A stretch of 64,000 bases of DNA from Granulicella sp. Its GTDB lineage: Bacteria; Acidobacteriota; Terriglobia; Terriglobales; Acidobacteriaceae. Position 1 is the first letter of the stretch. Each line of letters opens with the position of its first letter. The stretch is taken from the NCBI GenBank assembly GCA_965198515.1, contig CBDAPO010000005.1, positions 240,896 through 304,895 of the forward strand. Direction: 5' to 3'. A program made the position numbers and the translations under genes. Positions 37,618 to 52,597 of the stretch are shown here, in pieces. The notes below the pieces were generated by a model. That model was not told where the DNA came from and ran no database searches. It saw only the letters and a list, made by a program, of their open reading frames with translations.

Positions 37618-40374
37618 CTAGAAGCTGTAGCGCAGCCCGGCTTCCACGCGCCGGCCGTTATCCGCGGCATAGCCGACACCAAACAGGGGCGAGCCCAGCA
37701 CGTTGCCCACGGAGGTGATGTTGGTGTGGTTCAGCAAATTCGACGAGCGCAGGTTGATGGTGAATGTCTGCTGGTGCTCAGCCTTGGCGTTGCGCGTCAC
37801 CACAAACGCACGCTGAAGGTTGGTGTCCAGGTGCACCGTCCAGGGCATAATGCCCGCATTGCGTTGCAGCGGGGCAACGCCGCCCGTTGCGGTCAGCAGG
37901 CCGTAGGGCGTTTGCACAGCGCCGGCGGTGCCAGGCAGCGCGACGTTCGGCCGATCGTTGAAGTTGCCATCACCGTTATTGTCGAAGCCGGTGAGGATGT
38001 TGAAGTGCTGATCGCCGGAAACCTGCAGATCACCACTGAGCGTGATCTTTTTCGGCAGGGTAAACGTGCCGTTGCCGAAGATCTGCCAAACACCCTGATT
38101 GGACCGGCGCGCAAACTCGCCCGCATTGCTGGTGCTGCTTTGCGGCGAGTTCAGCTCGTTATCGTCCGTGTCATCAATCAGGTCCACATGCACGGCCCCC
38201 ACAAACATTTGCACGTTCTTGATGGTGTGCTGCTCAAGGCCCAGGAACTCAACATTCAGGTGCCCCTGGCCGCTGTTGTCCATGCGCAAGACGTTGAGGT
38301 TGCTGATGCCCAGTTGCCGTGGTCCGGTAGGCACACCGTCCAGCGGCGAGTTCACATTGGGCGAACGTAGCGCGTTCCAAAAACGCCCGTAGACCAGGTC
38401 CATGGAGACGTTGAAGCCAAAGGGCAGCTGGCGTGAGCCGCCAAGGTCTTCCGCGCTCCAGCTTTCCTGCGTGATGTGATCGGAGAACTCGCGCATCGTG
38501 TGGATCGGAACGGCGTTGGCTGAAAACGGTGCACCGTACACCGGGTTGTAGATCGTGTTCGTGATGCGGTGCACACCATCTTCACGCATGACCTCGGCAT
38601 AATCATTGCTGCTGATACGGCTCGCGAACATGCCGGCATGCGCGTACAGCGTCCACTTTGGCTTGGCGCCCGGCGCCCACAGAATCGAAGCTCGCGGCGT
38701 GGCGGAGTTCAGGGTTGTCGGGTCGTTCTGGAAGGCATACCGCATGCCGCCCGAAATCTTCACGCCGTGGCCAAGGGTCCAGTCCTCCTGAAAAAAGAAG
38801 GCCACCCGCGTCTGCGTGAACCTCAGGTTCGGGTCTCCTGTGACATTGGTAAAGGCCGTAGGTGTACCGCCCGGCAAGCCCAGCAGCGCGCGCCGGTATT
38901 GCTCATAGCCGCTGATGGTCTCTGTCTGCCCGGCAATAGGCTGATTGTTGGCGTCCAGCACCGGCGCAATGCCGCCGCCAAAGCCGTATGTGCCGTTGAA
39001 GTTTTGCGTTGACCGGTTGTGCAGGTCGTAGGTGTTCAACTGCACGCCGAACTTCAGGTTCTGCTTCTTCAACGTCACAATGGCATCGTCATCAAACTCG
39101 GTACGGAAGCCCCACAACCGCTGCTGACCGTTGATGGATCCACCCGCGCTGAACGACCCGGCAACCTGCACCTGCGGCGCCAGCGAGTTTGGTGCATCGT
39201 CTTCCACGTCCCAGCGCAGGGACGCGCGCGCCTCCTGCACCAGCTTCGGAGACAGCGCGGTGAAGTTCGTGAAGCGCAGCACATGTTGTGCTTGCTCACT
39301 GCTGTAGCTTGTCTCCGCAAGGCTGGTGCCACCGACGCCGACGTTGTCCAGGTGATTCACATTGGCGCTGTAGGTTGCGGTGAACGTGTTTTTGGCGCCC
39401 AGCTGCCAGTCCATCCGGGCCTGCCCAATCCACAGGCGCTGCGGGCTGGCGACGGTGTTTTGCACGTTGATGGGCTGCGCATTGCTGTCCAGCGACACCG
39501 CGTTCACCACGCTGACGTTGTCGATCGCACGCCTTTCCAGGTCGAGCGAAAAATCAGAGCCCTGCTTGCGGATGGGGCCGGTGAACTCAAACCCGTAACG
39601 CTGTTTCCCGATCGCGCCCTTGCTGGTCGAAAAGGGATCACGAGCGTTCTCCCACGAACTGCCATTGGTGGTGAACAAAGCACCGTGAAAGGCGCTCCTG
39701 CCGGCCTTGGTGTACACATTCACGCGGCCGCCGCCGCCGAAAGGGGGCTCGCGGTACTCGGCCGAGAATAGATCAGGGTTCACCTCAATGTATGCAATGG
39801 AGCTTTTGGGTGGCAGACTGCTGGACTCCTGGAAGCCATCCACCGAGATCGTCACATTGGCCGGATTGCCGCCCGTCGCTGCGGCAAGCTGCTGCAATTC
39901 CCGCAGCAAATCGTCGGGGTCGTCGGCCAGTGACTGCAACTGCTTGCCGTCTATCTTTTGCGACACACCGGTTGTCTGCGCATCGGGCAGGGGTGTGTCT
40001 TCCGCGCTCACGTTCACGTCGATGGCGACGTTATCCGGCTTCAACACGAACTCAACTTCGCCTCCGTAGGGCAGCTTGATCTCTTTCGTATCCGCGGCAA
40101 ATCCTTCTGCCTGGATCACCAGCTTGTGCGCGCCTGGCGCCACGCACGGGAAGCGAAACCGCCCATCCTGCCCACTGGTCAACGTGGTCGTTCCATCCAG
40201 CGTGAGCGACGCCCCGGGAACAAGCGCCATCGTGCTGTCGCGCACGGTGCCGGCCAGCGCAGCAGCCTGCGTGCTGCGGCAGGCGCTGCCGGTAGCTGGC
40301 TGCGTTTCGGCTTCCGCAAAGGCATGGGGGATCGCAAGCGTCGCAAACGCGATCGCCGGTACAAGGCGTTTCAT
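37618..40374 (-). CDS. TonB-dependent receptor with carboxypeptidase-regulatory-like N-domain
   Basis: Signal peptide, LAGTVRDSTMALVPGA, DPFSTSKGAIGKQRYG, C-terminal GLRYSF. Confidence 0.88.
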   Translation of the reverse strand: MKRLVPAIAFATLAIPHAFAEAETQPATGSACRSTQAAALAGTVRDSTMALVPGASLTLDGTTTLTSGQDGRFRFPCVAPGAHKLVIQAEGFAADTKEIKLPYGGEVEFVLKPDNVAIDVNVSAEDTPLPDAQTTGVSQKIDGKQLQSLADDPDDLLRELQQLAAATGGNPANVTISVDGFQESSSLPPKSSIAYIEVNPDLFSAEYREPPFGGGGRVNVYTKAGRSAFHGALFTTNGSSWENARDPFSTSKGAIGKQRYGFEFTGPIRKQGSDFSLDLERRAIDNVSVVNAVSLDSNAQPINVQNTVASPQRLWIGQARMDWQLGAKNTFTATYSANVNHLDNVGVGGTSLAETSYSSEQAQHVLRFTNFTALSPKLVQEARASLRWDVEDDAPNSLAPQVQVAGSFSAGGSINGQQRLWGFRTEFDDDAIVTLKKQNLKFGVQLNTYDLHNRSTQNFNGTYGFGGGIAPVLDANNQPIAGQTETISGYEQYRRALLGLPGGTPTAFTNVTGDPNLRFTQTRVAFFFQEDWTLGHGVKISGGMRYAFQNDPTTLNSATPRASILWAPGAKPKWTLYAHAGMFASRISSNDYAEVMREDGVHRITNTIYNPVYGAPFSANAVPIHTMREFSDHITQESWSAEDLGGSRQLPFGFNVSMDLVYGRFWNALRSPNVNSPLDGVPTGPRQLGISNLNVLRMDNSGQGHLNVEFLGLEQHTIKNVQMFVGAVHVDLIDDTDDNELNSPQSSTSNAGEFARRSNQGVWQIFGNGTFTLPKKITLSGDLQVSGDQHFNILTGFDNNGDGNFNDRPNVALPGTAGAVQTPYGLLTATGGVAPLQRNAGIMPWTVHLDTNLQRAFVVTRNAKAEHQQTFTINLRSSNLLNHTNITSVGNVLGSPLFGVGYAADNGRRVEAGLRYSF

Positions 40375-40596
40375 TGCTACGTCCTTAGCTGGTGGTGCAG
40401 TGTGCGGTGTGACGTTTGGTGAGACAGACCATCACGGGCCGAAAACTCTCGGCGCGAGTGTCTGCTCGTTCCTACGCTCACCATAGCGCTCCGGTTCCCG
40501 GGAACGGATGCAAAAACCTGATGAAACTACCGTGCGCTAACCATCTTGGTGCGCCCGCCCGGACGCTGCATACGACCTGCTCAGGCCCGCACACAA

Positions 40597-40632
40597 AGCA
40601 AAGGCGACGCTCCGGAGAACGCCGCCTTTGCT
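40597..40632 (-). terminator. Terminator candidate downstream of bamD
   Basis: AGCAAAGGCG / CGCCTTTGCT stem, followed by TTGTGTG on the minus strand. Confidence 0.7.
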
Positions 40633-40649
40633 GCTGTGTGTTGTGAAAG

Positions 40650-42569
40650 CTACAGCGGGTTGATCTTGTCGATGCCCTTCTTCTTCTTGTGCTTGCTGGA
40701 GCTTTCGTCGTTCTTGTCGTAGGCCGGCTTGGGGTTCTTCTTTTGGCCTTCAGCCTTGGTTTGTGCTGCCGGCTGCGGATGGCCCTGCACCTCGTTGACA
40801 GCATCAGGTGCTGGTGCTGCGGACTCTGCGGCGGGCAGGGGCGTGTTGTCCGGCGGCTTGGGAGCGGCGATGCCGAAGTTTGCATCCGGCGCGCCTGTTG
40901 CCGCTGGCCGGTCGCTGGCACGATCGGTCACCGGTGCCCCGGTCATGGCTCCCGGGCTCAGCACGTCCACGCCCAGCGAGGCACCGCTGCCACCGACACG
41001 GGCTCCACCGCCGCCAGTCGATGGGCTGGCCGGGGTCATGGTTCCGGTGGAACGCTCGCCTTCAGTGGTGTTGCCCACGTCAGACAGAGTCAGGGCGCCG
41101 CTGGCACCGGCGGGTGCCGGCGTGGGTTGGGCTGGAGCAGGCGTATTGTTTGCCGCCGCAGCTGCCGCTTCCTTGGCGGGCTCTGCTGTAGCCGGGTTGA
41201 ATGCAAACTTGTAATCGGCCTCGATCTGGTGAACGATCGCCGGGGCCACCGTGGGCTTGGCATCCTCCAGCGGAGGTGCGCCCAGCTGGGCGGCAGTAAC
41301 CGTGTCCGGCTTGCGGACCATGAGCAGTTCCAGCCGCTTGCGCATGGTGTACTGCGCACGGCTGCCTTCCAGCGCATCACTCGCGGCCACCTGCTCGGCC
41401 GTCGGCTGCGGAATCGGGAGGTTCATCGTGCCAAGCCGATCCTTGGCGTCTTCCACGTGCGGTGCGGCAGCATGTTGCAGGATCACTTCGCGGTACGCCG
41501 CGGCTGCTTTGCCGTCGTACTCCTGCTCCAGCTTGGCCTTGGGACCTTCCGGCATGTTGACCTGCGAGCGCACGACACGGGCTTCTGCCTCGTACGCGTC
41601 GCCAATTCCGATCAGCGTGTCGTCCATGTGGCTGAACAGCGGGTAGGTGTCGACCACCGTCTGATAGCGCGCGATTGCCGCCGGAAAATTATTGTGGCTG
41701 GCGTAGAACTGGCCCAGGCTGAATTCGCGCTCGGCCAGCACTTCCTGCACATCGCGCAGCTTCTGGGTCGCCTCGGTCAACACCGTTTTGGGTGCGTCCG
41801 GATAGGTCTTCAGCATCGTCCGGTACTGGTCTTCGGCCTTGATCGCCTTGGAATAGTCGCGGTCGGGCACGTCCATCTGCTTCATGTAGATGTCGCCCAT
41901 GCGCATCTGCGCTTCGGCGGCTTCGGGTGAATTCGGGAAGAAGGTGATGAAGTCGCCGTATTCCTGCTCGGCCTGCGCCATGGCGGCGCTGCCACCCTCC
42001 TTGAACCAGCAGTCCGCGACCGCCAGCTTGGCGCGCATCAGGTACTGCGAATCCGGATAGGTGTTTAGCAGGGTCTGCAGGTCCAGGCGGGCCACGTCGT
42101 AATGCCCCCTCTTCTCCTGGTCCAGCGCCTTGTCATAGAGCTGCTTGTCCGGCAGGTTCGCGTCCTTGCCTACCAGCGGGTTGTACTTCTGCTCGCGGCG
42201 CAGTTCGGCCTTGGTGTCCTTGGTCTGGACGGTCTTGTCTTCCTTGGCGATCTTTTCCTTTGACTTGGCCGTGGTTCCCTTTGCCGGCGCCTTCACCGTC
42301 TTCGGCGCGGGGGCAGGCTTGCTGCTGGAATTCGCCGGCTCGTCCTTCTGAATCCACTTGTGCTTCTTCGGGGCGGGTGCCTCGTCCGCCTGCGCCTGGG
42401 GCGCGGCGGAGGTGCTCTGGGAGGAGCTATCCTGTGCGGCCGGTGCGGGCGTTTGTTGCGCAAAAGCGAACGGCCCGGAGATCAACAGCGAAAATGCAGC
42501 CCCGGCAGCCCATGCTGCCCGGCTGTGAGGGAAAAAGTTCGGCTTACCTGCCCGCATCCACAACTCCAA
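40650..42569 (-). CDS. bamD: Outer-membrane assembly factor BamD with long disordered extensions
   Basis: TPR core LYDKAL..TYPDSQY, FFPNSPEAAEAQ, AAIARYQTVVDTYP; start uncertain. Confidence 0.88.
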   Translation of the reverse strand: MELWMRAGKPNFFPHSRAAWAAGAAFSLLISGPFAFAQQTPAPAAQDSSSQSTSAAPQAQADEAPAPKKHKWIQKDEPANSSSKPAPAPKTVKAPAKGTTAKSKEKIAKEDKTVQTKDTKAELRREQKYNPLVGKDANLPDKQLYDKALDQEKRGHYDVARLDLQTLLNTYPDSQYLMRAKLAVADCWFKEGGSAAMAQAEQEYGDFITFFPNSPEAAEAQMRMGDIYMKQMDVPDRDYSKAIKAEDQYRTMLKTYPDAPKTVLTEATQKLRDVQEVLAEREFSLGQFYASHNNFPAAIARYQTVVDTYPLFSHMDDTLIGIGDAYEAEARVVRSQVNMPEGPKAKLEQEYDGKAAAAYREVILQHAAAPHVEDAKDRLGTMNLPIPQPTAEQVAASDALEGSRAQYTMRKRLELLMVRKPDTVTAAQLGAPPLEDAKPTVAPAIVHQIEADYKFAFNPATAEPAKEAAAAAANNTPAPAQPTPAPAGASGALTLSDVGNTTEGERSTGTMTPASPSTGGGGARVGGSGASLGVDVLSPGAMTGAPVTDRASDRPAATGAPDANFGIAAPKPPDNTPLPAAESAAPAPDAVNEVQGHPQPAAQTKAEGQKKNPKPAYDKNDESSSKHKKKKGIDKINPL

Positions 42570-42656
42570 ACCGCCGGCCCACGAAAGGGAACCGGCACTC
42601 CCAGTATTCTAGGCGTCCCGAGCGCATCAGGCCACCAACGTCGGCAGAATGCCGGG

Positions 42657-43337
42657 CTAAACCCGAACTTCTGCCGCGGAACGCGCCGTCTGCAGAAGGG
42701 ACCGAGCGTTTTCCTCGGTCTTGCCCGGCTGAAACACCGCCGACCCGGCCACCAGCATGTCCGCTCCAGCTTGGACGACCGCGCCCACGGTGTCGTGAGC
42801 GATGCCACCGTCCACCTCGATGCGGAAGTTCAGTCCCATCTCCCGCCGCAGGCGCGCCAGGTGCGCAATCCGCTCCACGCTCCGCGGCAAAAACTTCTGC
42901 CCACCAAACCCCGGGTTCACGCTCATCACCAGCACGTGGTGCACGATGGGCAGCACTTCGACGATGTGTTCCACCGGCGTGTGCGGATTGATGACGACCG
43001 CCGGCTGCATGCCGTGGTCTGCAATCAACTGCAGCGTCCGGTTCAGGTGCCGGCATACTTCCCAGTGCACGCCGATCATGTCGGCGCCGGCTTCCGCGAA
43101 GTCCGGGATGAACTTATCGGGATCCTCGATCATCAGGTGGCAGTCGAGCGGCAGCTCGGTCACGCGTCGGATCGCCTTCACCACCGGCGGGCCAAAGGTG
43201 ATGTTCGGCACAAAATGACCGTCCATCACGTCCACATGGACGATGGTTCCGCCGCCGCGTTCGGCCGTGGCAATCTCGTCCGCCAGGTGGGCGAAGTCAG
43301 CTGCCAAAATCGAAAAACAAAGCTCAATCAACGCCAC
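42657..43337 (-). CDS. rpe: Ribulose-phosphate 3-epimerase
   Basis: SILAADF, HVDVMDGHFVPNITFG, DCHLM, MSVNPGFGGQ, EVDGG. Confidence 0.96.
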   Translation of the reverse strand: MALIELCFSILAADFAHLADEIATAERGGGTIVHVDVMDGHFVPNITFGPPVVKAIRRVTELPLDCHLMIEDPDKFIPDFAEAGADMIGVHWEVCRHLNRTLQLIADHGMQPAVVINPHTPVEHIVEVLPIVHHVLVMSVNPGFGGQKFLPRSVERIAHLARLRREMGLNFRIEVDGGIAHDTVGAVVQAGADMLVAGSAVFQPGKTEENARSLLQTARSAAEVRV

Positions 43338-43460
43338 ATCTCCTACGCGCTCAGGCTCTTCGCAGAATAGCAGCGCCCCAGCTCCCCCCGCCCGGCCCGC
43401 CGCCTGATGCCACGGCCATTGACGGTCATCGTCAGGCGCTCTTGCACCGGCGTAGCGGCC

Positions 43461-44744
43461 TTACTGGTACGTCAACTGAAGCCGACGATTCACCAAGGTC
43501 GCTGTTGGCCAGCTAGGCCACCCGGTGGCAGAGATGTAGAACAGCCAAGGGTTGCCGTTTCCGGTCGTGGGGTCACTGCCTTCGCCGACCAGGGTAGGGT
43601 ACAGAATGGTGTTTGTCCCGTCCGTGATTGCGCCCGAGGCAATCGGACCGGACCACGACAGAAGAGTGGATCCGTGTTGCATCGCGATCGCGTTGTTGCC
43701 GGTCGTGTACACAATGACGTACTGCTGGGTGCTCGCGTCATACAGCACCGAAGGGAAGCTCCCTGGCGCTGCGATCACCGCCGTGTAGTGTCCGGAGTTG
43801 GTGGCCGCATTGGGGTCACCGCTGGTGCCTGGTTCTGTGAACGCGCCGTTGTAGAACTTCTTGAAGAGCGTTGGGAAGGCCGCCGTATTGCCCGCGAATG
43901 CGTCGGCCACCACAGTGGCCAGCGGAGCGCGCGCCACCGCCAGGCAGGGCGTCTGGTTGCACGCCGTGGCCGTAGCCGCCGACGGATCGCGATCGCTATA
44001 AAACACGTAGAGATAGGTGTTGGCAGGATCTGCCGTGGCGAGATTGGCAATGTGCTGCCCGTTGCCATCTGCGACCACCAGCGTTCCTCCGCCCACATCC
44101 AGGCCCTGGTTGGCCCCGAGCACCGCGTTGCGCGTCAGATACGGCTGCACGATCTCGCCGAGCTTGGAAAAGGTCGCTCCGCCATCTTTGGAAAAAGCCA
44201 TGCCCAACGAAGCGTAGGTGCAATGTCCCGTTGCCGCACAGGTACCACCGTGCGCTTCGCCGTGGTACACGTGCAGAATGCCGGCTGCCCCTGTCGCGCT
44301 GGTCACGGCAAGGACGGGGCCGCCACCCGCGTAATCCTGATCAAACGTGTAGCCGTTCGGGTCACCGTTCGTGCTCGGTGTGATCTCCGCAGAACACCCG
44401 TAAGGCTCCGTCATGGCCGTCAAGGATCCACCTAAACGGTACGTGCCCTGTGTTGACGGTGTGCCTGCGCATGCGGTGGAGCTACGGGCCGGCACATAAA
44501 AGGTATAGCTGCTTCCGCTGAGCAGCACGCCAATGCTGCCGTCCGGAGGCCCGTACTGAAACCCCAGAGCGGTCCGCTGTGGGGACGTGAGGACGCTCGT
44601 CTCCGCACCCGCCTGGATGGTGAAAACCGTTGGGGTCGTAACCGGCGGCGTACTCGGCGGAGCTGTGGAGTTCGATGTGCCACTGCTACAGGACACAAAC
44701 CCGCAACACAAGCTCGAGATCAGCAAAGCACTCAGCAGTCGCAT
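43461..44744 (-). CDS. Lipoprotein, possible beta-propeller glycoside-hydrolase-like fold
   Basis: AGGAG RBS; lipobox-like FVSC; Asp-box-like SKDGGATF; YHGE, YPTL motifs. Confidence 0.75.
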   Translation of the reverse strand: MRLLSALLISSLCCGFVSCSSGTSNSTAPPSTPPVTTPTVFTIQAGAETSVLTSPQRTALGFQYGPPDGSIGVLLSGSSYTFYVPARSSTACAGTPSTQGTYRLGGSLTAMTEPYGCSAEITPSTNGDPNGYTFDQDYAGGGPVLAVTSATGAAGILHVYHGEAHGGTCAATGHCTYASLGMAFSKDGGATFSKLGEIVQPYLTRNAVLGANQGLDVGGGTLVVADGNGQHIANLATADPANTYLYVFYSDRDPSAATATACNQTPCLAVARAPLATVVADAFAGNTAAFPTLFKKFYNGAFTEPGTSGDPNAATNSGHYTAVIAAPGSFPSVLYDASTQQYVIVYTTGNNAIAMQHGSTLLSWSGPIASGAITDGTNTILYPTLVGEGSDPTTGNGNPWLFYISATGWPSWPTATLVNRRLQLTYQ

Positions 44745-44836
44745 ACATCTCCTACCCGTTTGGACCCGCCGACGGGCTCTTGCACCCACGCTACACGACG
44801 CCCTCCGCAGCGGTCGTGCTCACATAAGAACTTTCA

Positions 44837-44850
44837 GTAAAGCGCTTGCC
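44837..44850. promoter_or_regulatory. LacI-type operator candidate upstream of the lipoprotein
   Basis: GTAAAGCGCTTGCC with AAGCGCTT core. Confidence 0.35.
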
Positions 44851-45002
44851 CTGAGGCGCCTGTCCACGTCGCTGGGGTGGCCTCCTGCCCTTTGTCAGGG
44901 AGCGTCGCTCTGAGCATGATCCCCTGCGGAAAAGAAAGCTAATTCGCCATTCTCCGCATACGGACACACGATTCGGGAAGAGATCAGGCGCCCCCGAGCC
45001 TT

Positions 45003-46541
45003 CTACGGCACAACCTCACTCGGCAACAGCGTCTTGCCTCGGCGGCTTTTGCGTCTTGGCAACACCGGCACAACCCGTTCCACCCCCTCACGCCCCGGAT
45101 GCAGAACTCGGGTCTTGCTTCCCTTATCGGCAGCTTCGGACAAAACTTTAGCGGCTTCGCGATCTACCGGGGTCACCTCGGCGGGCGGCCCCAGCACAAC
45201 GCGTGCCGCAGCGTTCAGCAGGCGGCGAACCGGCCAGCTGCCATCCGCGTTGGGCAGCAGTACCTCCCCGGCCCGCTGCTTTTCCGGGCGGTAGTACCAG
45301 CGCTTGAAGAGCGCCAGCGCATCGCCACGCAAGGTCGGCTCCGGCTCACCTTCGGCGCTGGTCTCTGCCTCAAGCCTTTCGATGACTGCACGCGCCCGAT
45401 CCTCGGGCGAAAGTGCGCCTGGGGCTTGTCCCGCAGCCTGCCCTGGGCCGGCTGCCTGCGCATGCTCCTGCGATCCGGGTTCCCCTGCGTCCGCCCCGGT
45501 GCGCGCTTCCGGCACAGCACTCAACATCAGTGGCTGCGCAAAGAGCGAAGACCCCACCGCAGTTTGCTCCCGCACGGCGCGCACACCCAGCGTGGAGAGC
45601 CGCTCCGGCCCGACCAGCCGCCCGCCGTCCAGCAGAAACACCGCCGCATCCGGCATCGCGTCTCCACCGTCAGCAGCCTCCGGCCGCGCTGCGGCCTGCA
45701 CGATCAGCGCGCGTACCTCGTGCGCCGCCCGCACCAACGGGTCGGCACCCTGGGCGATGCCTTTCACCTTTTCCCATTGCCGGTGCAGCGTGGCCGCGCC
45801 CTCGAAGTCCATGTCTTCGCTGGCGGCTTCACGCTTGGCGGCAATCTCTGTCATCAGGCTTTCGCCGCGTGTGCGCAGGTAGGCAAATACCCGCTCGGCT
45901 TCGGTCCGGTAGGTGTCTCCGGTTACAGCCACCTTGCACGGTGCGAGGCAGCGGCCCATCTCGCCGTAGACGCAGCCGGGGTGCTCGGGATGGACCTCCA
46001 GGTCTTCGTGGCAGCGTCGCACCTTGAACAACTCACCCACAGCCTCGGCCACGCGCTCGGCCGCGGCGCGTGAGGCAAAGGGACCAAAGCTTTCGTGCAG
46101 CGCCCTCCGGCTCATTTTGTTGCTGACGTACACGCGCGGATGGTCATGGCTCATGGTGACGCGCAGGAAATACGGGCAGTGCAGTCGCAGTCGCTTGCGC
46201 GCTTCCGCTTCGCCGAAAAGGGCGTGCGTGGCCCGGTACTGCAGCAGGACGCCTTCAAAGTCCGATCCGGTCTCGGTCCACTCAATCGAGCGCACCCGAT
46301 CGCGCAGATTCAACCTCTTGCTCAGCACCGGGTTGCCGTCCGCATCCACTGTTTCCGGCGGCAGCAGCAGGCGTCGGAGGCGGCGGCGCAGATCGGCCGC
46401 GCGCATCAGGTAGGGCTGGTCGGTGTCGCGTTCACCACGCAGGGCGAAGACGCCAGGGCGTGCCGGCACACCACGCAAAGTCGCCTCAGCCTCTTCAGGC
46501 GTGAAAGGGACGCGGTGCGCAAAGGCAAACGGCTCGGCCAT
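45003..46541 (-). CDS. UvrC/Cho-like protein with degenerate GIY-YIG domain, Cys cluster and UVR domain
   Basis: PGVF..YLMRAADLRRRL, SFGPF, RRC..GCVYGEMGRCLAPC, MDFEGAA; no RNase H-like or HhH C-terminal domains. Confidence 0.85.
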   Translation of the reverse strand: MAEPFAFAHRVPFTPEEAEATLRGVPARPGVFALRGERDTDQPYLMRAADLRRRLRRLLLPPETVDADGNPVLSKRLNLRDRVRSIEWTETGSDFEGVLLQYRATHALFGEAEARKRLRLHCPYFLRVTMSHDHPRVYVSNKMSRRALHESFGPFASRAAAERVAEAVGELFKVRRCHEDLEVHPEHPGCVYGEMGRCLAPCKVAVTGDTYRTEAERVFAYLRTRGESLMTEIAAKREAASEDMDFEGAATLHRQWEKVKGIAQGADPLVRAAHEVRALIVQAAARPEAADGGDAMPDAAVFLLDGGRLVGPERLSTLGVRAVREQTAVGSSLFAQPLMLSAVPEARTGADAGEPGSQEHAQAAGPGQAAGQAPGALSPEDRARAVIERLEAETSAEGEPEPTLRGDALALFKRWYYRPEKQRAGEVLLPNADGSWPVRRLLNAAARVVLGPPAEVTPVDREAAKVLSEAADKGSKTRVLHPGREGVERVVPVLPRRKSRRGKTLLPSEVVP

Positions 46542-46722
46542 GGGTCAGATTTTAGCTTTCCCGGGGCTTCGGCCGCCTGCCCCGATCGTGGAACTCACCC
46601 CCTGGCTCCGGGCGTACTTCGTATCAAAACGAGACATTTGGCCGCGGCGCCCACTTTTTGCAACCGAAGTACCCGTCACGTGCGTATGGTCCTTTCGAAG
46701 CCGCTTTTTCTGGAGACAACGT

Positions 46723-47598
46723 ATGCGCCTGCATCTTCTCGGTTGTATCGCCGCCCTTTTTGCCTGCACCCTCGGGCACGCACAGAACTTTGCCACCTCA
46801 CCTTGCCCAAACAGCGGTGACGGCGGCTCGGGTTGGTTCGGGCACCAGGAGCGTGCCTGCGAACTGCGCCGCACTACTCTTGCGCTTACCGGCGGCCATC
46901 TCGGCGTTGCAGGGAGCAATGGAAGCATCGAGGTTGTCGGTGAAGACCGCTCTGACATTGCGCTGGAAGTGAAAGTGACCGCGCAGGCCGGCTCCCGTTC
47001 TGAGGCCGAAGCCCTGCTGCATGAGGTCCGTATCGTCACCAATGGCAGCGACATTCGCGCGGAAGGCCCCCACGGGGACTCCGGCCTTTTCTCCCACCGT
47101 AACTGGAATGCAAGCTTTCGGCTGCGCGTTCCACGCCGTGTAGCCCATGCCGATCTGAACACCTCAAACGGCGGTATCCAGGTGGAAAGCCTGGAAGGGC
47201 AGCTCTCTGCCAAAACCACCAACGGTGGCATTGAAGCAGCCCATGTACGCGGGGATCTCCGTGCTTCGACAACCAATGGCGGCCTGCGGCTTGCAGACCT
47301 TGGCGGCTCCGTTCACGCTGAAACCACCAATGGCGGTGTGCAAATTTCGCTTGCCGGCGACCGGTGGCACGGTGATGGACTCTTCGCGAGATCCACCAAC
47401 GGCCCCATCACCGTGAAGGCGCCGGAGCACTTTGCCGCCCACCTGGTCGCGGACACCACGAACGGCGGAATTTCGATAGACTTCCCCATCACCGTGCAAG
47501 GGAAGATCGGCCATCACATCGATACCGATGTCAACGGCGGTGGTCCCGCGGTCCATCTCGAGACAACCAATGGCGGAGTGACGATCGACCGGCTCTAG
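46723..47598 (+). CDS. Exported DUF4097-type beta-strand repeat protein
   Basis: GGAGA RBS; signal peptide; seven T(T/S)NG(G/P) repeats. Confidence 0.88.
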   Translation: MRLHLLGCIAALFACTLGHAQNFATSPCPNSGDGGSGWFGHQERACELRRTTLALTGGHLGVAGSNGSIEVVGEDRSDIALEVKVTAQAGSRSEAEALLHEVRIVTNGSDIRAEGPHGDSGLFSHRNWNASFRLRVPRRVAHADLNTSNGGIQVESLEGQLSAKTTNGGIEAAHVRGDLRASTTNGGLRLADLGGSVHAETTNGGVQISLAGDRWHGDGLFARSTNGPITVKAPEHFAAHLVADTTNGGISIDFPITVQGKIGHHIDTDVNGGGPAVHLETTNGGVTIDRL

Positions 47599-47630
47599 GC
47601 CATCGCGCTTCGCTAAAGCTCGGGGGCGTT

Positions 47631-49064
47631 TCAGCTGCCCGCGACCGTCATGCCTTCCACGCGCACGGTCGGCACCGCCCCGGATCCACGCCATTCCAGG
47701 TCGTTGCCGATCGCGCTGACGTTGCGGTACATGTCTTTCAGGTTGCCGGCAATCGTGATCTCCTCCACGGGGAACGCGATCTCGCCATCCTCAATCCACA
47801 ATCCGCTTGCACCCTGCGAGTAGTCGCCAGTGACCAGGTTGACGCCGAAGCCCATGGTGCTCAGCACCAGCAACCCGCGCTGCACGCCGCGCACGATCTC
47901 CTCATGACTTTGTGTGCCGGGCTCTAGAAAGAAGTTGCCGCCGCCGATGCCCGGCGCGCCTGACATGCCGCGCGAAGCCTTTGCATTCGACTGCATGCCG
48001 AGCTTGCGCGCCGTGTAGGTGTTCAGCATCAGCTCTTTCAACACGCCGCGCTCTACCACCACGGTGCGCCGGGTGGGCAGGCCGTCTCCGTCGAACGGCG
48101 AGGTGCCAAAGCCGCCTACCTGCAGCGTTGAGCCATCCGGCAGTGTGTGCGAAAAGACCATTGTTCCGTCGTCGACGATGGTGATGTTTTCCCCTGCGAC
48201 CTGCTCGCCCAGCTTGCCGGCGAACATGCTCGCGTTGCGGTAGATTGCGTCGCCGTTCGCTGCACTCAGGAGGCTGCCCATCAGGCCGCGGGCGGCTTCC
48301 GGCGGAAAGATGACCGGAACCTGCTGGGTGGGCACGCGCCGTGCACCCAACAAGCGGAGGGAGCGCCTGGCGGCCTCGCGGCCCACGGCCTCGGGATCTT
48401 CCAGCAGGCGAGCTGTGCGCGCACTGGAGTACCAGTAGCCGCCCTGCATGCCACTTTCATCCTGTGCGATGGGCGCAGCGGAAAAGCCCACGTACGAGCG
48501 CCGGTACTCGCCGGTAAAGCCGCGGGAATTCATCATCACGCGGTGCGCCCAGGAGCAGTCAAAGCTGGCACCTTTGGAGTTCTGGATGCGCGTGTCAAAG
48601 CCCATCGCTGCGGCCTCGCAACGCCGGGCAATCTCGATGCGCTCGGGGGCGGGGATCGCGTTGGCATCCTCGAAGTAGAGCGCTTGCGTGGCGGGGTCGT
48701 GCTGCCCGAAGGCGTCGCTCTCCGGCAGACCCGCGAAGGGGTCGACGCCAGTAACTCTGGCGAGTTCCACGGCGCTTGAAACCAGCCGGGCGATGCCGGC
48801 CTCGCTCAGGTCGGAGGACGTGGTCGACGCGGTACGCTGGCCGCCCTCAGCTGCGCAGAAGACGCGTAGCCCGATGGCCCGGGAGCCGGCCTCGGTCAGT
48901 TGCTCCACCTCACCGAGGCGGACGTGTACGTTGAACTCTTCGCCTTCATAGATGACGACTTCGGCGTCCGATGCGCCCGCCCGCAAGGCGCGATGGAGAG
49001 CCTGCTCCGCGAGGGTGCGCAAGGCAGGCCCGGCATGTTGTGCTGTGTCGTTACGATCCGCCAT
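47631..49064 (-). CDS. pmbA: TldE/PmbA metalloprotease subunit
   Basis: IGLRVF, SPFDGDGLP, GVNLVTGDYSQGASG, EEITIAGNLKD; no HExxH. Confidence 0.92.
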   Translation of the reverse strand: MADRNDTAQHAGPALRTLAEQALHRALRAGASDAEVVIYEGEEFNVHVRLGEVEQLTEAGSRAIGLRVFCAAEGGQRTASTTSSDLSEAGIARLVSSAVELARVTGVDPFAGLPESDAFGQHDPATQALYFEDANAIPAPERIEIARRCEAAAMGFDTRIQNSKGASFDCSWAHRVMMNSRGFTGEYRRSYVGFSAAPIAQDESGMQGGYWYSSARTARLLEDPEAVGREAARRSLRLLGARRVPTQQVPVIFPPEAARGLMGSLLSAANGDAIYRNASMFAGKLGEQVAGENITIVDDGTMVFSHTLPDGSTLQVGGFGTSPFDGDGLPTRRTVVVERGVLKELMLNTYTARKLGMQSNAKASRGMSGAPGIGGGNFFLEPGTQSHEEIVRGVQRGLLVLSTMGFGVNLVTGDYSQGASGLWIEDGEIAFPVEEITIAGNLKDMYRNVSAIGNDLEWRGSGAVPTVRVEGMTVAGS

Positions 49065-49103
49065 ACACCGCTATTGTCGCAGGCGCGTGACTTGCTGCGT
49101 TGC

Positions 49104-49673
49104 CTAGTCCCGGATGAACATGGCGGTTTCCGGACTGCCGCCCTTGCTCGCGATCACGCGCACGTTGTCGCCCTTGGACGGGGAAAACTTGTCCGCTGGT
49201 ACGGCGCCGTTCATGCTGTCGGCCATGGCCTTGGGGTCAATCTGAAAGGTTTGCTCCTTGCCGGTGCTGTCCTTTACTGAGATCTGGTGGCTGTGCTTGT
49301 TGAACTTGGTCACCGTTCCTTCCACCGTGTCGAATGGACCGGCCCCGAGGTCCTGGATGGCAACCGCCGTGCGCACGCTGTTGTTGCCATAGAAGTACAC
49401 GACCACCTGCTCGCCCGTTTTGCTGAAGCTGGAAACTGGCGTGGTGCGGTCCTTGACGTCCCGGTCGAAGCTGACCTCGGTGGCGCCCTGCTTGGCGGGG
49501 TAGCTGAACGTCCCCTCCGAGCCGTCGTTGGTGGTCACCTGGATCGTTCTGGCCGCTGGGTCCACCTTGGTTACGGTGCCGCTCAGGGCGTGCACGATCT
49601 CCTGGGCTGCCGCCGTCCCGGCGCACAGCAGCGCCGCTGACAACGCAATGACTGCTCCGCTTGCATACCGCAT
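49104..49673 (-). CDS. Exported protein with two OB-fold-like beta repeats
   Basis: GGAGG RBS; signal peptide; SGTVTKVDPAARTIQV and EGTVTKFNKHSHQISV repeats. Confidence 0.8.
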   Translation of the reverse strand: MRYASGAVIALSAALLCAGTAAAQEIVHALSGTVTKVDPAARTIQVTTNDGSEGTFSYPAKQGATEVSFDRDVKDRTTPVSSFSKTGEQVVVYFYGNNSVRTAVAIQDLGAGPFDTVEGTVTKFNKHSHQISVKDSTGKEQTFQIDPKAMADSMNGAVPADKFSPSKGDNVRVIASKGGSPETAMFIRD

Positions 49674-49684
49674 GTCAATCCTCC

Positions 49685-49798
49685 GCCTGCGTCTTGACCT
49701 TTGATCGCAGATCAGACAGGCATTTTGTAACGAGAGGAATATACATCTTGACACGATACATCTGCAAGGAAAACTTCGCGCCCCGCAAAGACGCAGGC
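49685..49798. promoter_or_regulatory. AT-rich promoter segment bounded by 11-bp inverted repeats
   Basis: GCCTGCGTCTT (49685-49695) / AAGACGCAGGC (49788-49798); minus-strand TTGCAG-18-TATATT; plus-strand TTGACA-17-AAACTT; ATACATCT direct repeat at 49741 and 49756. Confidence 0.6.
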
Positions 49799-49837
49799 AA
49801 AGGGCGGTCCCTCGCGGGTCCGCTGCCTCGTTTTGCC

Positions 49838-50152
49838 TTATTGGACGGGGTTTAGCGACAGCCTCGGCTCGCGTCCGTCCTTGGCTTGCTGGAAATACAG
49901 GCCGGAAGGGCAGTACTCGGAGTCTGCACGATGGAGGTGCTCGGCATGCGAGGCTGCGCCGTGCGCCACCTTGCGCTTGTGCAGCTTTACAGAGCCATTG
50001 CAGTCCTTGCAGCGAAACTCGGTATCGTTGTCGTCCAGTGCGTCCTGCACGGACTTTACTTTCCAGAAGCTTTCATACCCCGTTGCTCCTGTACGCCGGC
50101 GCCGTCTGCGAACTTCGCACTCGTAGATGACTTCTTTCTTCGTTCCCGTCAC
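49838..50152 (-). CDS. Small zinc-finger protein (CoiA N-terminal-like pattern)
   Basis: AAGGAG RBS 12 nt after tldD stop; FRCKDC..SHAEH..YC; poly-Arg stretch. Confidence 0.8.
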   Translation of the reverse strand: MTGTKKEVIYECEVRRRRRRTGATGYESFWKVKSVQDALDDNDTEFRCKDCNGSVKLHKRKVAHGAASHAEHLHRADSEYCPSGLYFQQAKDGREPRLSLNPVQ

Positions 50153-50164
50153 ATAGCTCCTTGC

Positions 50165-51631
50165 TTACTGTCCAGTTCCGCCCACGGTCATGCGGTCTAA
50201 CTTGATGGTGGGCATACCTACGCCCACCGGTACGCTCTGCCCGGCTTTGCCACAGGTGCCGATACCTTCGTCGAGCGCAAGATCATTGCCCACCATCGAC
50301 ACATGCTTGAGCGACTCGGGCCCATTGCCGACCAGGGTTGCCCCCTTCACCGGGGCGGTCACTTTGCCGTCCTCGATCAGGTAGGCCTCGCTCGCGGTGA
50401 AGACGAATTTGCCTGTTGTGATATCTACCTGGCCACCGCCGAAGTTGACGGCATAAAGGCCGCGTTTGACGCTGCGCAGGATGTCGGCCGGATCGTCCTC
50501 GCCGTTGAGCATGTAGGTGTTGGTCATGCGCGGCATGGGGATCGCCTGGTAGCTTTCACGGCGCCCGCTGCCGGTGTTGGGCATGCCCATCAGCCGCGAA
50601 CTGAGTTTGTCGCTGAGGTAGCCGCGCAGAATGCCGTTTTCGATCAGTACGGTTTCCTGGGTCGGATTGCCCTCGTCGTCCACGTTCAGCGATCCGCGCC
50701 GGCCCGGCATGGTGCCGTTATCGACGACCGTGACCTTGCTGGACGCGACCTGGCGCCCGATGAGGCCGGCAAAGGCGGATGTCTTCTTGCGGTTGAAGTC
50801 GGCTTCAAGCCCATGGCCTACGGCTTCATGGAGCAGCACGCCGGGCCAGCCAGGGCCCAGGACGACTTCCATCTCGCCGGCCGGTGCCGCCTTGGCCCCG
50901 AGCTGCAGCAGCGCCGTGCGTGCGGCCTCCTCGGCAAAGTGCTCCGGGCTTTTGTCGCCGGTGAAAAAGTCGAGCGTAACGCGACCACCGCCGCCAGAGG
51001 TGCCGCGGGCTACTTCGCCGCTTGCGTCCTTGGCGATCACGAAGACGTTGAAGCGTGCGAGCGGCTGTGTGTCGCTGGCAAAGGTGCCGTCGCTGGCGGC
51101 GATCAGGATGCGGCGAAGCTCGTCATTGAGCCCGGCGCGGACCTGGACGATGCGCGGATCGAACGCCCGGGCCGCGCGATCTGCGCGTGCGATGAGGTCG
51201 AGCTTGGTGGCGATCTCGGCGTCCACGGTGGCGCCAGCCACCGGGTACAACTGCGGTGCCGGCCGCTCCGTAAAGCCCTGCACGCGCTCCGTTTGCGGGC
51301 CGCTGGCAATGAGCGCTGCCGTGCGTGCAGCCTTCAAGAGGCGCTCGGGCGACAGGTCATCGGTGTAGGCGAAGCCGGTGCGCTCACCGGAAAGCACGCG
51401 TACGCCGCAACCCACGCTGATACCCTCGGCCGCGGTCTTCACGATGCCTTCGTCCACGCCCAGCGAGGTGGACGTAACGGACTCGAAGTACAGGTCCGCA
51501 AACTCGCCGCCGGCACTCAGGGCTTCGCCAAGGCAACGTTCCAGCAGCCGCTCGCTCAGCCCGAGCGTGTCGAAAAAGTAGCGCTTGTGATCATATGCAG
51601 GCTGCAAAAGAGAGGAGGGAAGAGCCGCCAT
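50165..51631 (-). CDS. tldD: TldD metalloprotease subunit
   Basis: LLHEAVGHGLEADFNRK, VDDEGNP, PMPRMTNT, GTCGKAGQSVPVG. Confidence 0.95.
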   Translation of the reverse strand: MAALPSSLLQPAYDHKRYFFDTLGLSERLLERCLGEALSAGGEFADLYFESVTSTSLGVDEGIVKTAAEGISVGCGVRVLSGERTGFAYTDDLSPERLLKAARTAALIASGPQTERVQGFTERPAPQLYPVAGATVDAEIATKLDLIARADRAARAFDPRIVQVRAGLNDELRRILIAASDGTFASDTQPLARFNVFVIAKDASGEVARGTSGGGGRVTLDFFTGDKSPEHFAEEAARTALLQLGAKAAPAGEMEVVLGPGWPGVLLHEAVGHGLEADFNRKKTSAFAGLIGRQVASSKVTVVDNGTMPGRRGSLNVDDEGNPTQETVLIENGILRGYLSDKLSSRLMGMPNTGSGRRESYQAIPMPRMTNTYMLNGEDDPADILRSVKRGLYAVNFGGGQVDITTGKFVFTASEAYLIEDGKVTAPVKGATLVGNGPESLKHVSMVGNDLALDEGIGTCGKAGQSVPVGVGMPTIKLDRMTVGGTGQ

Positions 51632-51673
51632 CCCTTTATTGTACGGCCCTGCGCAGGTTACCTATGGGTAAGG

Positions 51674-52597
51674 TCAGCGTCCGTGCGAGGGATCGGCACT
51701 CGCGGCGACGTCCATATCGAGAAACATCTGCGGGTATCCAGGCGCATAACAATTGCCATCGGCAGCGTACGTTTTGCCGCAGCTTTGCGTGATCTCCGGT
51801 CGCCGCGGTGACTGGGCGTATTGCCAGGCGATGATGCCTGCATCGGGTGCAGCGCTCAGCGGTTTAGGCTGCAAGGTGCAACCTGGCGCCGGCGGGCACT
51901 GGTCCAGCGCGTCGAGGATGGCGACCTCATGCAGCTTGCCGGCCTTTACTTGGGCGCGAATGTCCTGGATGGTGTCGATGGTCGCGCCGGGGGAGTCCTG
52001 CACGGCCTGGCCGCTCGCATACGCGCCCGGTTGAAAGCCGCTGCCGGCAACGGCCTCGGTCCAGCCCAGCAGATAAGCGGCCTGCTCGGGAAGCAGACGT
52101 CCACCTTCTTCCTGGTCGAGAAAGATCACCGTATGCGCGGGAAAGCCTTCGCGATGGGCGCTGGCGACGGCGATGGCGGCGTCCTGCCGGCCAAGGTCTC
52201 CGGGCCTCGTGCCGGCCTTCTGCGCGTTCAGGATCTCGGCATCGAGACGGCCGTTGGCGAGCACAAGAAAGCCCCATCCCTGTTGAACCAAGAGTGCCCG
52301 CTTGCCAACCCAGGTGTTGGCGTTTTCGCCGGGCGGGTTGGTCAGCCAGTATCCGGTAAAGGCGAAAGGATCTGGCGCTTTGCGCAGGCTTGCCATCACG
52401 TCGTCGCCGGGGTAGTCATTGCGATCGAAGCCGCGATATTGGCCCGTGTTCGTGCGGCCGCTCGCGACGTCTGCAGCCGGTTGTGCTGCCGAGGTCTGCT
52501 GCCCTTGAAGGGCGGCGGGAGTTGACGGCGAGACCGCGCGTGAGCAGCCTGAAAGCACAAGGACCAAACCACCCAGAACGGCACAGCAGGAACGCAT
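51674..52597 (-). CDS. DUF1906 (GH25-like) lipoprotein
   Basis: Lipobox LSGC; GFDRNDYPG, IFLDQEEGG, AWQYAQSP. Confidence 0.8.
   Translation of the reverse strand: MRSCCAVLGGLVLVLSGCSRAVSPSTPAALQGQQTSAAQPAADVASGRTNTGQYRGFDRNDYPGDDVMASLRKAPDPFAFTGYWLTNPPGENANTWVGKRALLVQQGWGFLVLANGRLDAEILNAQKAGTRPGDLGRQDAAIAVASAHREGFPAHTVIFLDQEEGGRLLPEQAAYLLGWTEAVAGSGFQPGAYASGQAVQDSPGATIDTIQDIRAQVKAGKLHEVAILDALDQCPPAPGCTLQPKPLSAAPDAGIIAWQYAQSPRRPEITQSCGKTYAADGNCYAPGYPQMFLDMDVAASADPSHGR

Follow-up and report, generated by a model that had tools for sequence, protein, structure and literature searches.

What use would a bacterium with a complete UvrC have for a second, shorter UvrC-like protein whose nuclease site has been lost? 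The question is posed by a gene in a 64,000-nt stretch of DNA from Granulicella sp. (Acidobacteriota, Acidobacteriaceae; GenBank assembly GCA_965198515.1, contig CBDAPO010000005.1, positions 240,896 to 304,895 of the forward strand), referred to here as the window. The product of this gene resembles UvrC-N, the part of UvrC that consists of the NEndo GIY-YIG domain, a beta-sheet motif, a Cys-rich four-helix bundle with the UvrB-binding helices, and an inactive central RNase H1 domain (PMC10085695). An earlier note on this DNA had described it as a UvrC paralogue with a disabled nuclease and with intact iron-sulfur (Fe-S) and UvrB-binding modules. The nuclease site is indeed disabled, and this holds throughout the family to which the gene belongs. 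Judged from its sequence and its relatives, the protein probably serves in binding or regulation and does not cut.

A UvrC-N-like paralogue beside a complete UvrC

According to the list of open reading frames (ORFs) and its translation, the gene is intact, starts with ATG and encodes 512 amino acids (aa). Met stands at residue 1 in 63 of the 82 diverse members that make up the core family alignment, to which the member counts below refer; extra loci, from the family f72 and from one other family, lie outside it. The ORF is a true paralogue and not the organism's own UvrC, because a complete canonical uvrC, and a canonical uvrB as well, are found elsewhere in the genome. This uvrC, for which the earlier note had proposed to look, lies about 140 kb off on the same contig and encodes 722 aa with all catalytic residues kept, and the C-terminal UVR domain of UvrB is normal. 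The paralogue, in other words, accompanies a full canonical uvrB and uvrC set that is uvrA-independent. On the UvrC model TIGR00194, which has a cut-off of 285 bits, the genome's real UvrC scores 299.9 and 252.9 bits, whereas the paralogue reaches 83.8 bits, over profile positions 4–230 only.

How close are the two proteins? BLASTP aligns the paralogue to the genome's own UvrC with 26% identity over 243 aa (E 7e-18), and hhalign, run with the family against the canonical UvrCs, equates residues 19–317 of the paralogue with UvrC 4–283 (probability 99.5, E 5e-23). On these alignments the likeness is far beyond chance. A single-sequence phmmer search of the PDB with the paralogue returned no UvrC, and the family profile is needed to reach UvrC structures. 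An AlphaFold2 model computed from the 82-sequence family alignment has a predicted local distance difference test (pLDDT) score of 87.8 and a predicted template modeling (TM) score of 0.83.

The back half of UvrC has no counterpart in the protein. The UvrC RNase H families PF22920 and PF08459 and the HhH family PF14520, all annotated on canonical UvrC, are absent from the precomputed Pfam annotation of 120 listed relatives and give no local Pfam hit on the paralogue, where the only match is the UVR motif (residues 228–255, E 0.019, sub-threshold). The RNase H-like and HhH domains that the earlier note reported as missing are thus absent, but the protein does not simply stop there: the UVR hairpin is followed by an additional conserved, folded domain of about 190 aa. 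By its domain content, the paralogue would either never have had the half with the catalytic RNase H and (HhH)2 domains or have lost it.

Active-site positions of the GIY-YIG-like domain

That the N-terminal domain has the GIY-YIG alpha/beta fold (PF01541 superfamily) is seen with Foldseek, which matches it to the UvrC GIY-YIG structures 1yd6, 1ycz and 1yd0-5 at target TM scores of 0.66–0.70 and probabilities of 0.98–1.00. The catalytic set of that superfamily (Tyr, Tyr, Arg, metal-binding Glu, Asn) is another matter, since the paralogue has F32, Y44, R54, Q101 and no Asn. The register of these positions was given concordantly by four methods, namely BLASTP, MAFFT family alignments, a search of the family profile against the PDB, and hhalign; the active-site assignment is thus one of sequence and profile alignment together with a Foldseek domain match, and not of residue-level superposition. 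In the profile search, the family aligns to residues 12–88 of Thermotoga maritima UvrC (1ycz/1yd5).

In work on the T. maritima enzyme, loss of any single one of six residues reportedly abolishes 3' incision. Two of the six are kept in the paralogue (Y29 as Y44 and R39 as R54). The other four are lost: Y19 is replaced by F32, Y43 by L58 and the metal-binding E76 by Q101, while N88 has no counterpart. This is the tally that the earlier note had arrived at by eye, and the motifs on which it was based are all present in the register agreed by the four methods: PGVF at residues 29–32, YLM at 44–46, RLL at 57–59 and GVLLQ at 97–101. The P-x-[YF]-N motif (PRYN) is absent, with G-E-A-E-A-R in its place.

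Is the loss peculiar to this protein? In the family alignment, the E76 column holds Leu in 56 members, His in nine and Gln in seven, and Asp or Glu in none of the 82. The N88 column has Tyr or Ala and never Asn, the Y43 column has Leu in 71 members, and the Y19 column is split mainly between Phe (55) and Tyr (16). The R39 column, on the other hand, is Arg in 79 members, and the Y29 equivalent is kept in 58. A Glu restored at the metal site, which would have spoken against a dead nuclease, was looked for in this alignment and not seen, nor is there any conserved acid within four positions on either side of the E76 column, apart from E96. As E96 matches T. maritima E71, a residue that active UvrC has as well, it cannot replace E76. 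At E<=0.01, only two of the 82 members are recognized by Pfam GIY-YIG. Formation of the one-metal GIY-YIG site is precluded: Gln here, and Leu in most relatives, takes the place of the metal-binding Glu, no Asn remains, and other residues have replaced two of the three Tyr. The divergent f72 form, which has His at the Glu site together with Y19F and Y29L changes, is also without the Glu, and catalysis must therefore have been lost long ago. The domain is strongly basic, with an isoelectric point (pI) of 10.9.

Conserved modules, descent and genomic setting

Which parts of the protein, then, have been preserved? Mean pairwise identity is highest in the Cys-rich bundle (51%), followed by the UVR hairpin (44%) and the GIY-YIG-like domain (37%), and is lowest in the C-terminal domain (25–29%). 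Twelve residues are invariant among members with 25–87% overall identity, among them C190, C198, C202, F246, E247, A249 and H253. By these measures, the gene is under long-term purifying selection centered on the Cys bundle and the UVR hairpin.

Between the GIY-YIG-like domain and the bundle lies a small beta motif with strands at residues 125–128, 136–140 and 151–153 in the AlphaFold2 model (pLDDT >95). Both BLASTP and hhalign align it to UvrC 'YPYLKLTLADRHPKVFVT', and it corresponds to the beta-sheet motif of UvrC-N (Seck 2023, PMC10085695). The whole four-helix bundle, including the Cys motif and the UVR hairpin, spans residues 151–262. Invariant or near-invariant residues in the bundle are G153, P154, F155, R175, R176, C177, G189, C190, Y192, E194, C198, P201, C202, Y211 and E214. 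All four cysteines that the earlier note had reported as kept (C177, C190, C198 and C202) align with the Cys motif of UvrC, and they are conserved in 81–82 of the 82 members and in 97–98 of 100 sequences in a wider alignment. Their spacing agrees with the Cys-rich consensus of UvrC, CX6-14CX3(H/Q)X3CX3C (PMC10085695), except that the middle residue is Glu and not His or Gln. This Glu194 (codon 45960–45962) is itself near-invariant (80/82), where the published consensus has His or Gln; it might tune the cluster. PF27096, the sole precomputed Pfam entry on the paralogue family, falls in the bundle half; it was considered as a dedicated model for the family and rejected, because canonical UvrC carries it too. 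A literature search found PF27096 in no paper.

The UVR hairpin is recognized by Pfam in 52 of the 82 members (E<=0.01) and is matched by Foldseek to UvrB's C-terminal domain (1qoj) with a target TM score of 0.80 and a root-mean-square deviation of 0.9. The signature R.EAA....FE.AA is common to the paralogue and the genome's UvrB and UvrC, and R237, F246, E247, A249 and H253 are invariant.

The nature of the C-terminal domain is less obvious. AlphaFold2 predicts it with a pLDDT >90 outside a disordered insert. Its first strands align by hhalign to UvrC 250–283, at the start of the central domain, while the rest is merely collinear with the central region of UvrC (hhalign E 0.006, probability 6%). 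A search of the PDB with a domain-only AlphaFold2 model (pLDDT 80) gave no fold match, RNase H-like or other. The conserved residues include no acidic cluster, the invariant ones being Trp, Arg and Gly. The domain is probably a reduced remnant of the central inactive "RNase H1" domain of UvrC. The insert occurs in about one third of the family (column occupancy 0.33). Canonical UvrC has an acidic Pro/Ala-rich low-complexity insert of about 100 aa in its central domain, at residues ~287–385, and the insert of the paralogue is at the equivalent place. The basic C-terminal tail is limited to close relatives (occupancy 0.32); its pLDDT block means are 83, 84, 71, 83 and 62, with values below 50 from about residue 499.

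How widespread is the paralogue? More than 3,000 relatives were found, and 136 representatives at the 50% cluster level have E values <1e-30. All 17 sampled genomes of the organism's own family and one sister family are positive, with scores of 455–499 bits, and each has a separate hit to canonical UvrC. Across the Terriglobia, the gene is present as a single copy in 100 of 151 sampled genomes, and some families are without it; the f72 family has a divergent form of about 380 aa that scores about 190 bits. No paralogue was found in the other sampled classes of the phylum, where the scores do not exceed about 151 bits and that score belongs to the canonical UvrC there. Named records are from the Acidobacteriaceae and Terriglobales and include Granulicella, Edaphobacter, Terracidiphilus, Acidicapsa and Bryocella. 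There is no Pfam or NCBIfam model specific for the family, either in the precomputed Pfam annotation or in an NCBIfam scan of the 82 members.

In a maximum-likelihood tree, all paralogues, including the f72 form, make up one clade (support 100/99) that mirrors the taxonomic families; a long branch sets it apart, outside every acidobacterial UvrC sampled. As the UvrCs in the tree are from Acidobacteriota only, the topology is compatible with an old duplication or with transfer. The distribution and the tree point to single-copy vertical inheritance across most Terriglobia. Compared with the query pair, the paralogue and UvrC of other genomes (contigs of equal recorded length being taken as belonging to one genome) are 72 and 79%, 66 and 77%, and 74 and 80% identical, respectively; on these identities, divergence is just a little faster for the paralogue than for UvrC.

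The gene is part of a co-directional order tldD-pmbA-[paralogue]-rpe-bamD that is found across the Acidobacteriaceae, down to about 40% identity (window positions 37618–52597; loci L004–L083), and in these loci pmbA often ends right at the start of the paralogue. The order was considered as an operon clue to function and rejected, since it is lost outside the Acidobacteriaceae. In the window, two genes break the run, a divergent DUF4097 gene and an ORF of 442 aa (Table 1). The DUF4097 gene more likely starts at an ATG near 46723, shortly ahead of a segment that looks like a signal peptide, and the divergent intergenic region then measures about 180 bp. At five of ten loci from other families, representing three Terriglobia families, a gene for an aldo/keto reductase adjoins the paralogue on the same strand, either upstream or downstream. 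As it occurs in either order, this is too weak a clue to function, and it may reflect chance or a weak functional link.

A separate observation concerns the SOS response of this organism. A 17-nt motif, GTTCGCCTTTCyTTyGC, is common to the upstream regions of lexA (G000:C6:2601977) and recA (G000:C6:2251697), with 0 and 2 mismatches, and a weaker copy is found at uvrB. Similar to the direct-repeat LexA boxes of Alphaproteobacteria (GTTC-N7-GTTC), it qualifies as a candidate SOS box. Another candidate for this role, a palindrome upstream of lexA, was dropped, as it has no regulon.

Table 1. Positions of the paralogue, its parts, the canonical UvrC gene and neighboring genes (window coordinates unless a locus is named)
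Feature	Position	Strand	Residues	Basis or remarks
Whole gene, UvrC-N (Cho-like) paralogue	45003..46541	(-)		ORF and translation; stop codon 45003-45005 included
GIY-YIG-fold domain without catalytic residues	46182..46484	(-)	20-120	Foldseek, family profile, hhalign
Small beta-sheet linker motif	46092..46181	(-)	121-150	Conserved YPR (P135, R136)
Four-helix bundle, first half, with Cys-rich (presumed Fe-S) motif	45867..46091	(-)	151-225	
Cys motif C177-X12-C190-X3-E194-X3-C198-X3-C202	45936..46013	(-)		Alignment with Cys of the genome's own UvrC
UVR (UvrB/UvrC-type) helical hairpin	45756..45866	(-)	226-262	Pfam, Foldseek, by-eye comparison with the genome's UvrB C-terminus and UvrC
C-terminal alpha/beta domain	45177..45749	(-)	265-455	~190 aa; W415 invariant
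Disordered Ala/Gly/Pro/Gln-rich insert	45411..45554	(-)	330-377	~45 aa; pLDDT 50-59
Basic C-terminal tail	45006..45176	(-)	456-512	pI 10.9
442-aa ORF	43461-44789	(-)		No Pfam hit; signal/lipoprotein-like N-terminus; between paralogue and rpe in this lineage only
DUF4097 (toastrack) ORF	46423-47598	(+)		Listed GTG start overlaps paralogue 5' end by 119 nt
Canonical UvrC	L001:208-2373	(-)		Profile match and residue check
Aldo/keto reductase genes	L091:4000-4998, L092:3715-4830, L095:3655-4863, L100:3730-4959, L101:6104-7132			Some overlaps of 4-13 nt

Possible roles and known relatives

What might a UvrC-like protein do that cannot cut? The reading that we find reasonably probable is that it is a nuclease-dead, Fe-S-bearing UvrC-N (Cho-like) pseudo-enzyme, which docks on UvrB or DNA without cutting and modulates the access of UvrC. 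In such a scheme, the four cysteines of the bundle would hold an Fe-S cluster, the very basic GIY-YIG-like domain would bind DNA, and the UVR hairpin would dock on the UvrB C-terminal domain or on the hairpin of UvrC. UvrB-DNA pre-incision complexes would then be occupied or stabilized uncut, and the access of UvrC would be gated or modulated.

Several points weigh against this reading. That the four-Cys motif binds an Fe-S cluster is presumed from the cysteines alone. The neighborhood offers no link to repair, the conserved gene order being limited to the Acidobacteriaceae while the neighbors differ in other families of Terriglobia, and the candidate (unvalidated) SOS box is absent from the whole 64-kb window at up to four mismatches, a tentative result that speaks weakly against SOS control. 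A further point is the hairpin. F652 and R659 of UvrB, equivalent to F213 and R220 of Deinococcus radiodurans UvrC, are key residues of the UvrB-UvrC interface (Seck et al. 2023, PMC10085695). The UvrB-binding module that the earlier note had called intact is so only in part: the hairpin is recognizable and its interface Phe is invariant (F246), but the key Arg is His (H253) in all 82 aligned members. In the loci outside that alignment, the position is Arg in the f72 form and Gln in the one other family. As a result, UvrB docking could have changed, or a different partner could be the target of the hairpin. Invariance of a surface residue such as H253 argues for a conserved protein contact, which may differ from the canonical UvrB-UvrC pairing.

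Some of these observations favor the idea that the protein works apart from UvrB and excision repair and is instead an Fe-S DNA-binding protein, such as a sensor of redox state or DNA charge transport or a scaffold for some other pathway, with a hairpin that self-associates or binds some other UVR-type partner. The Cys bundle is, after all, the best conserved part of the protein, the interface Arg is consistently His, no link to repair comes from the neighborhood or from the candidate SOS box, and UVR motifs occur in ClpC/ClpE-type proteins as well (as weak profile hits). However, the UvrC-N architecture has been kept in order, complete with the UVR signature (R..EAA....FE.AA), which is most simply understood if the ancestral partner was kept too, and a UvrB-independent role strikes us as rather unlikely. 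Could the partner be UvrC itself, with the paralogue binding its hairpin or central domain and altering its auto-inhibition? UvrB and UvrC have homologous UVR hairpins that are able to pair (PMC10085695), and the paralogue is always found alongside a full UvrC, but nothing points specifically to this arrangement, and the two genes are not co-localized. Such a role is improbable.

It is quite improbable, too, that the protein is still a nuclease with a rebuilt site, in which Tyr44 and Arg54 would act together with some other acidic or His residue, or in which the C-terminal domain would supply the activity. The Y29 and R39 equivalents have largely been kept, His takes the place of the metal ligand in nine members and in the f72 form, and D. 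radiodurans UvrC-N is able to incise DNA on its own (PMC10085695). Yet the metal-ligand position is mostly Leu, the sole conserved acid nearby (E96) is shared with canonical enzymes, and the C-terminal domain is without a conserved acidic cluster. Finally, lost catalytic residues and a low-complexity insert might be expected of a functionless, decaying relic of a uvrC duplication. This is refuted by the conservation of an intact, single-copy frame in 100 of 151 genomes, by the twelve invariant residues, by a confident AlphaFold2 fold and by a tree that follows taxonomy, and we give it hardly any credence.

If the paralogue is a docking pseudo-enzyme, what would that mean for repair? A more ambitious version of the proposal, which is tentative and on the doubtful side, is that Terriglobia have an undescribed layer of control over nucleotide excision repair, in which the dead Fe-S UvrC mimic would sit on UvrB-DNA by means of its Arg-to-His hairpin and would hold the complexes until the redox, pH or growth state permits UvrC to act. 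If true, this would amount to a pseudo-enzyme incision checkpoint in slow-growing soil bacteria. More generally, bacterial excision repair is seen as a closed system, UvrA-UvrB-UvrC(-Cho), whose UvrC homologues are all nucleases, and a dead paralogue that is found class-wide departs from this view; it points to a non-enzymatic accessory or regulator of repair, or else to the UvrC Fe-S module having been put to a new use. As a natural separation-of-function variant, it could show what the debated Fe-S cluster and the central domain of UvrC do apart from incision. The records label members of the family either "hypothetical protein" or "excinuclease ABC subunit C," and the latter label is misleading for a protein that, judging by its active-site positions, almost certainly cannot incise.

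How does the paralogue compare with the UvrC homologues that are already known? With UvrC-N it shares the domain order, the four cysteines, the UVR hairpin and the beginning of a central domain, with homology over residues 19–317. It differs in being encoded on its own, with no RNase H2 and (HhH)2 half, in having lost the GIY-YIG set (Y19F, Y43L, E76Q/L, N88 absent), in having His for the interface Arg, and in its reduced central domain, which lacks a fold match. E. coli Cho (class II Cho) is an active 3' incision nuclease that has no UVR hairpin, has a C-terminal domain of its own and is controlled by LexA. Both it and the paralogue are short UvrC homologues that exist beside UvrC and combine a GIY-YIG fold with a Cys-rich motif, but the paralogue has a UVR hairpin, a dead site and no candidate SOS box nearby. 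The paralogue scores 28.2 bits on the E. coli Cho model NF007833, against a cut-off of 367, in keeping with the earlier note, which had set it apart from active Cho; 13 of the 82 members match this model at E<=1e-5. The best NCBIfam hit is the model for Cho-like+Exo fusions, NF005906/PRK07883, with 115 bits against a cut-off of 495 (profile positions 206–477). The match is to the UvrC-N-like part of these fusions, whose N-terminal DEDD/ExoIII exonuclease domain the paralogue does not have. A special kinship to them was rejected, since canonical UvrCs score higher on the same model (205–259 bits).

A close architectural parallel is the "Cho-like" subfamily, defined by a C4-UvrBb arrangement without EndoV-HhH (Dunin-Horkawicz et al. 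2006, PMC1564403), and the "class III Cho" that PMC10085695 cites from Goosen & Moolenaar 2008. As far as these are characterized in PMC1564403 and in the citing paper, they share with the paralogue a GIY-YIG domain, four cysteines, a UvrB-binding motif and a C-terminal domain in a stand-alone protein that exists beside UvrC, and hhalign, the AlphaFold2 layout and the UVR motif agree in giving the paralogue this Cho-like architecture, although without an active GIY-YIG site. A literature search, whose scope did not extend to Goosen & Moolenaar 2008, found no publication on a catalytically dead UvrC-N/Cho-like family. In the same accounts, the Cho-like and class III Cho proteins are described as nucleases that are expected to act in excision repair, whereas not one member of the paralogue family has the metal-binding Glu. 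The architecture, then, is already catalogued; what sets this family apart is that it is dead and nevertheless conserved.

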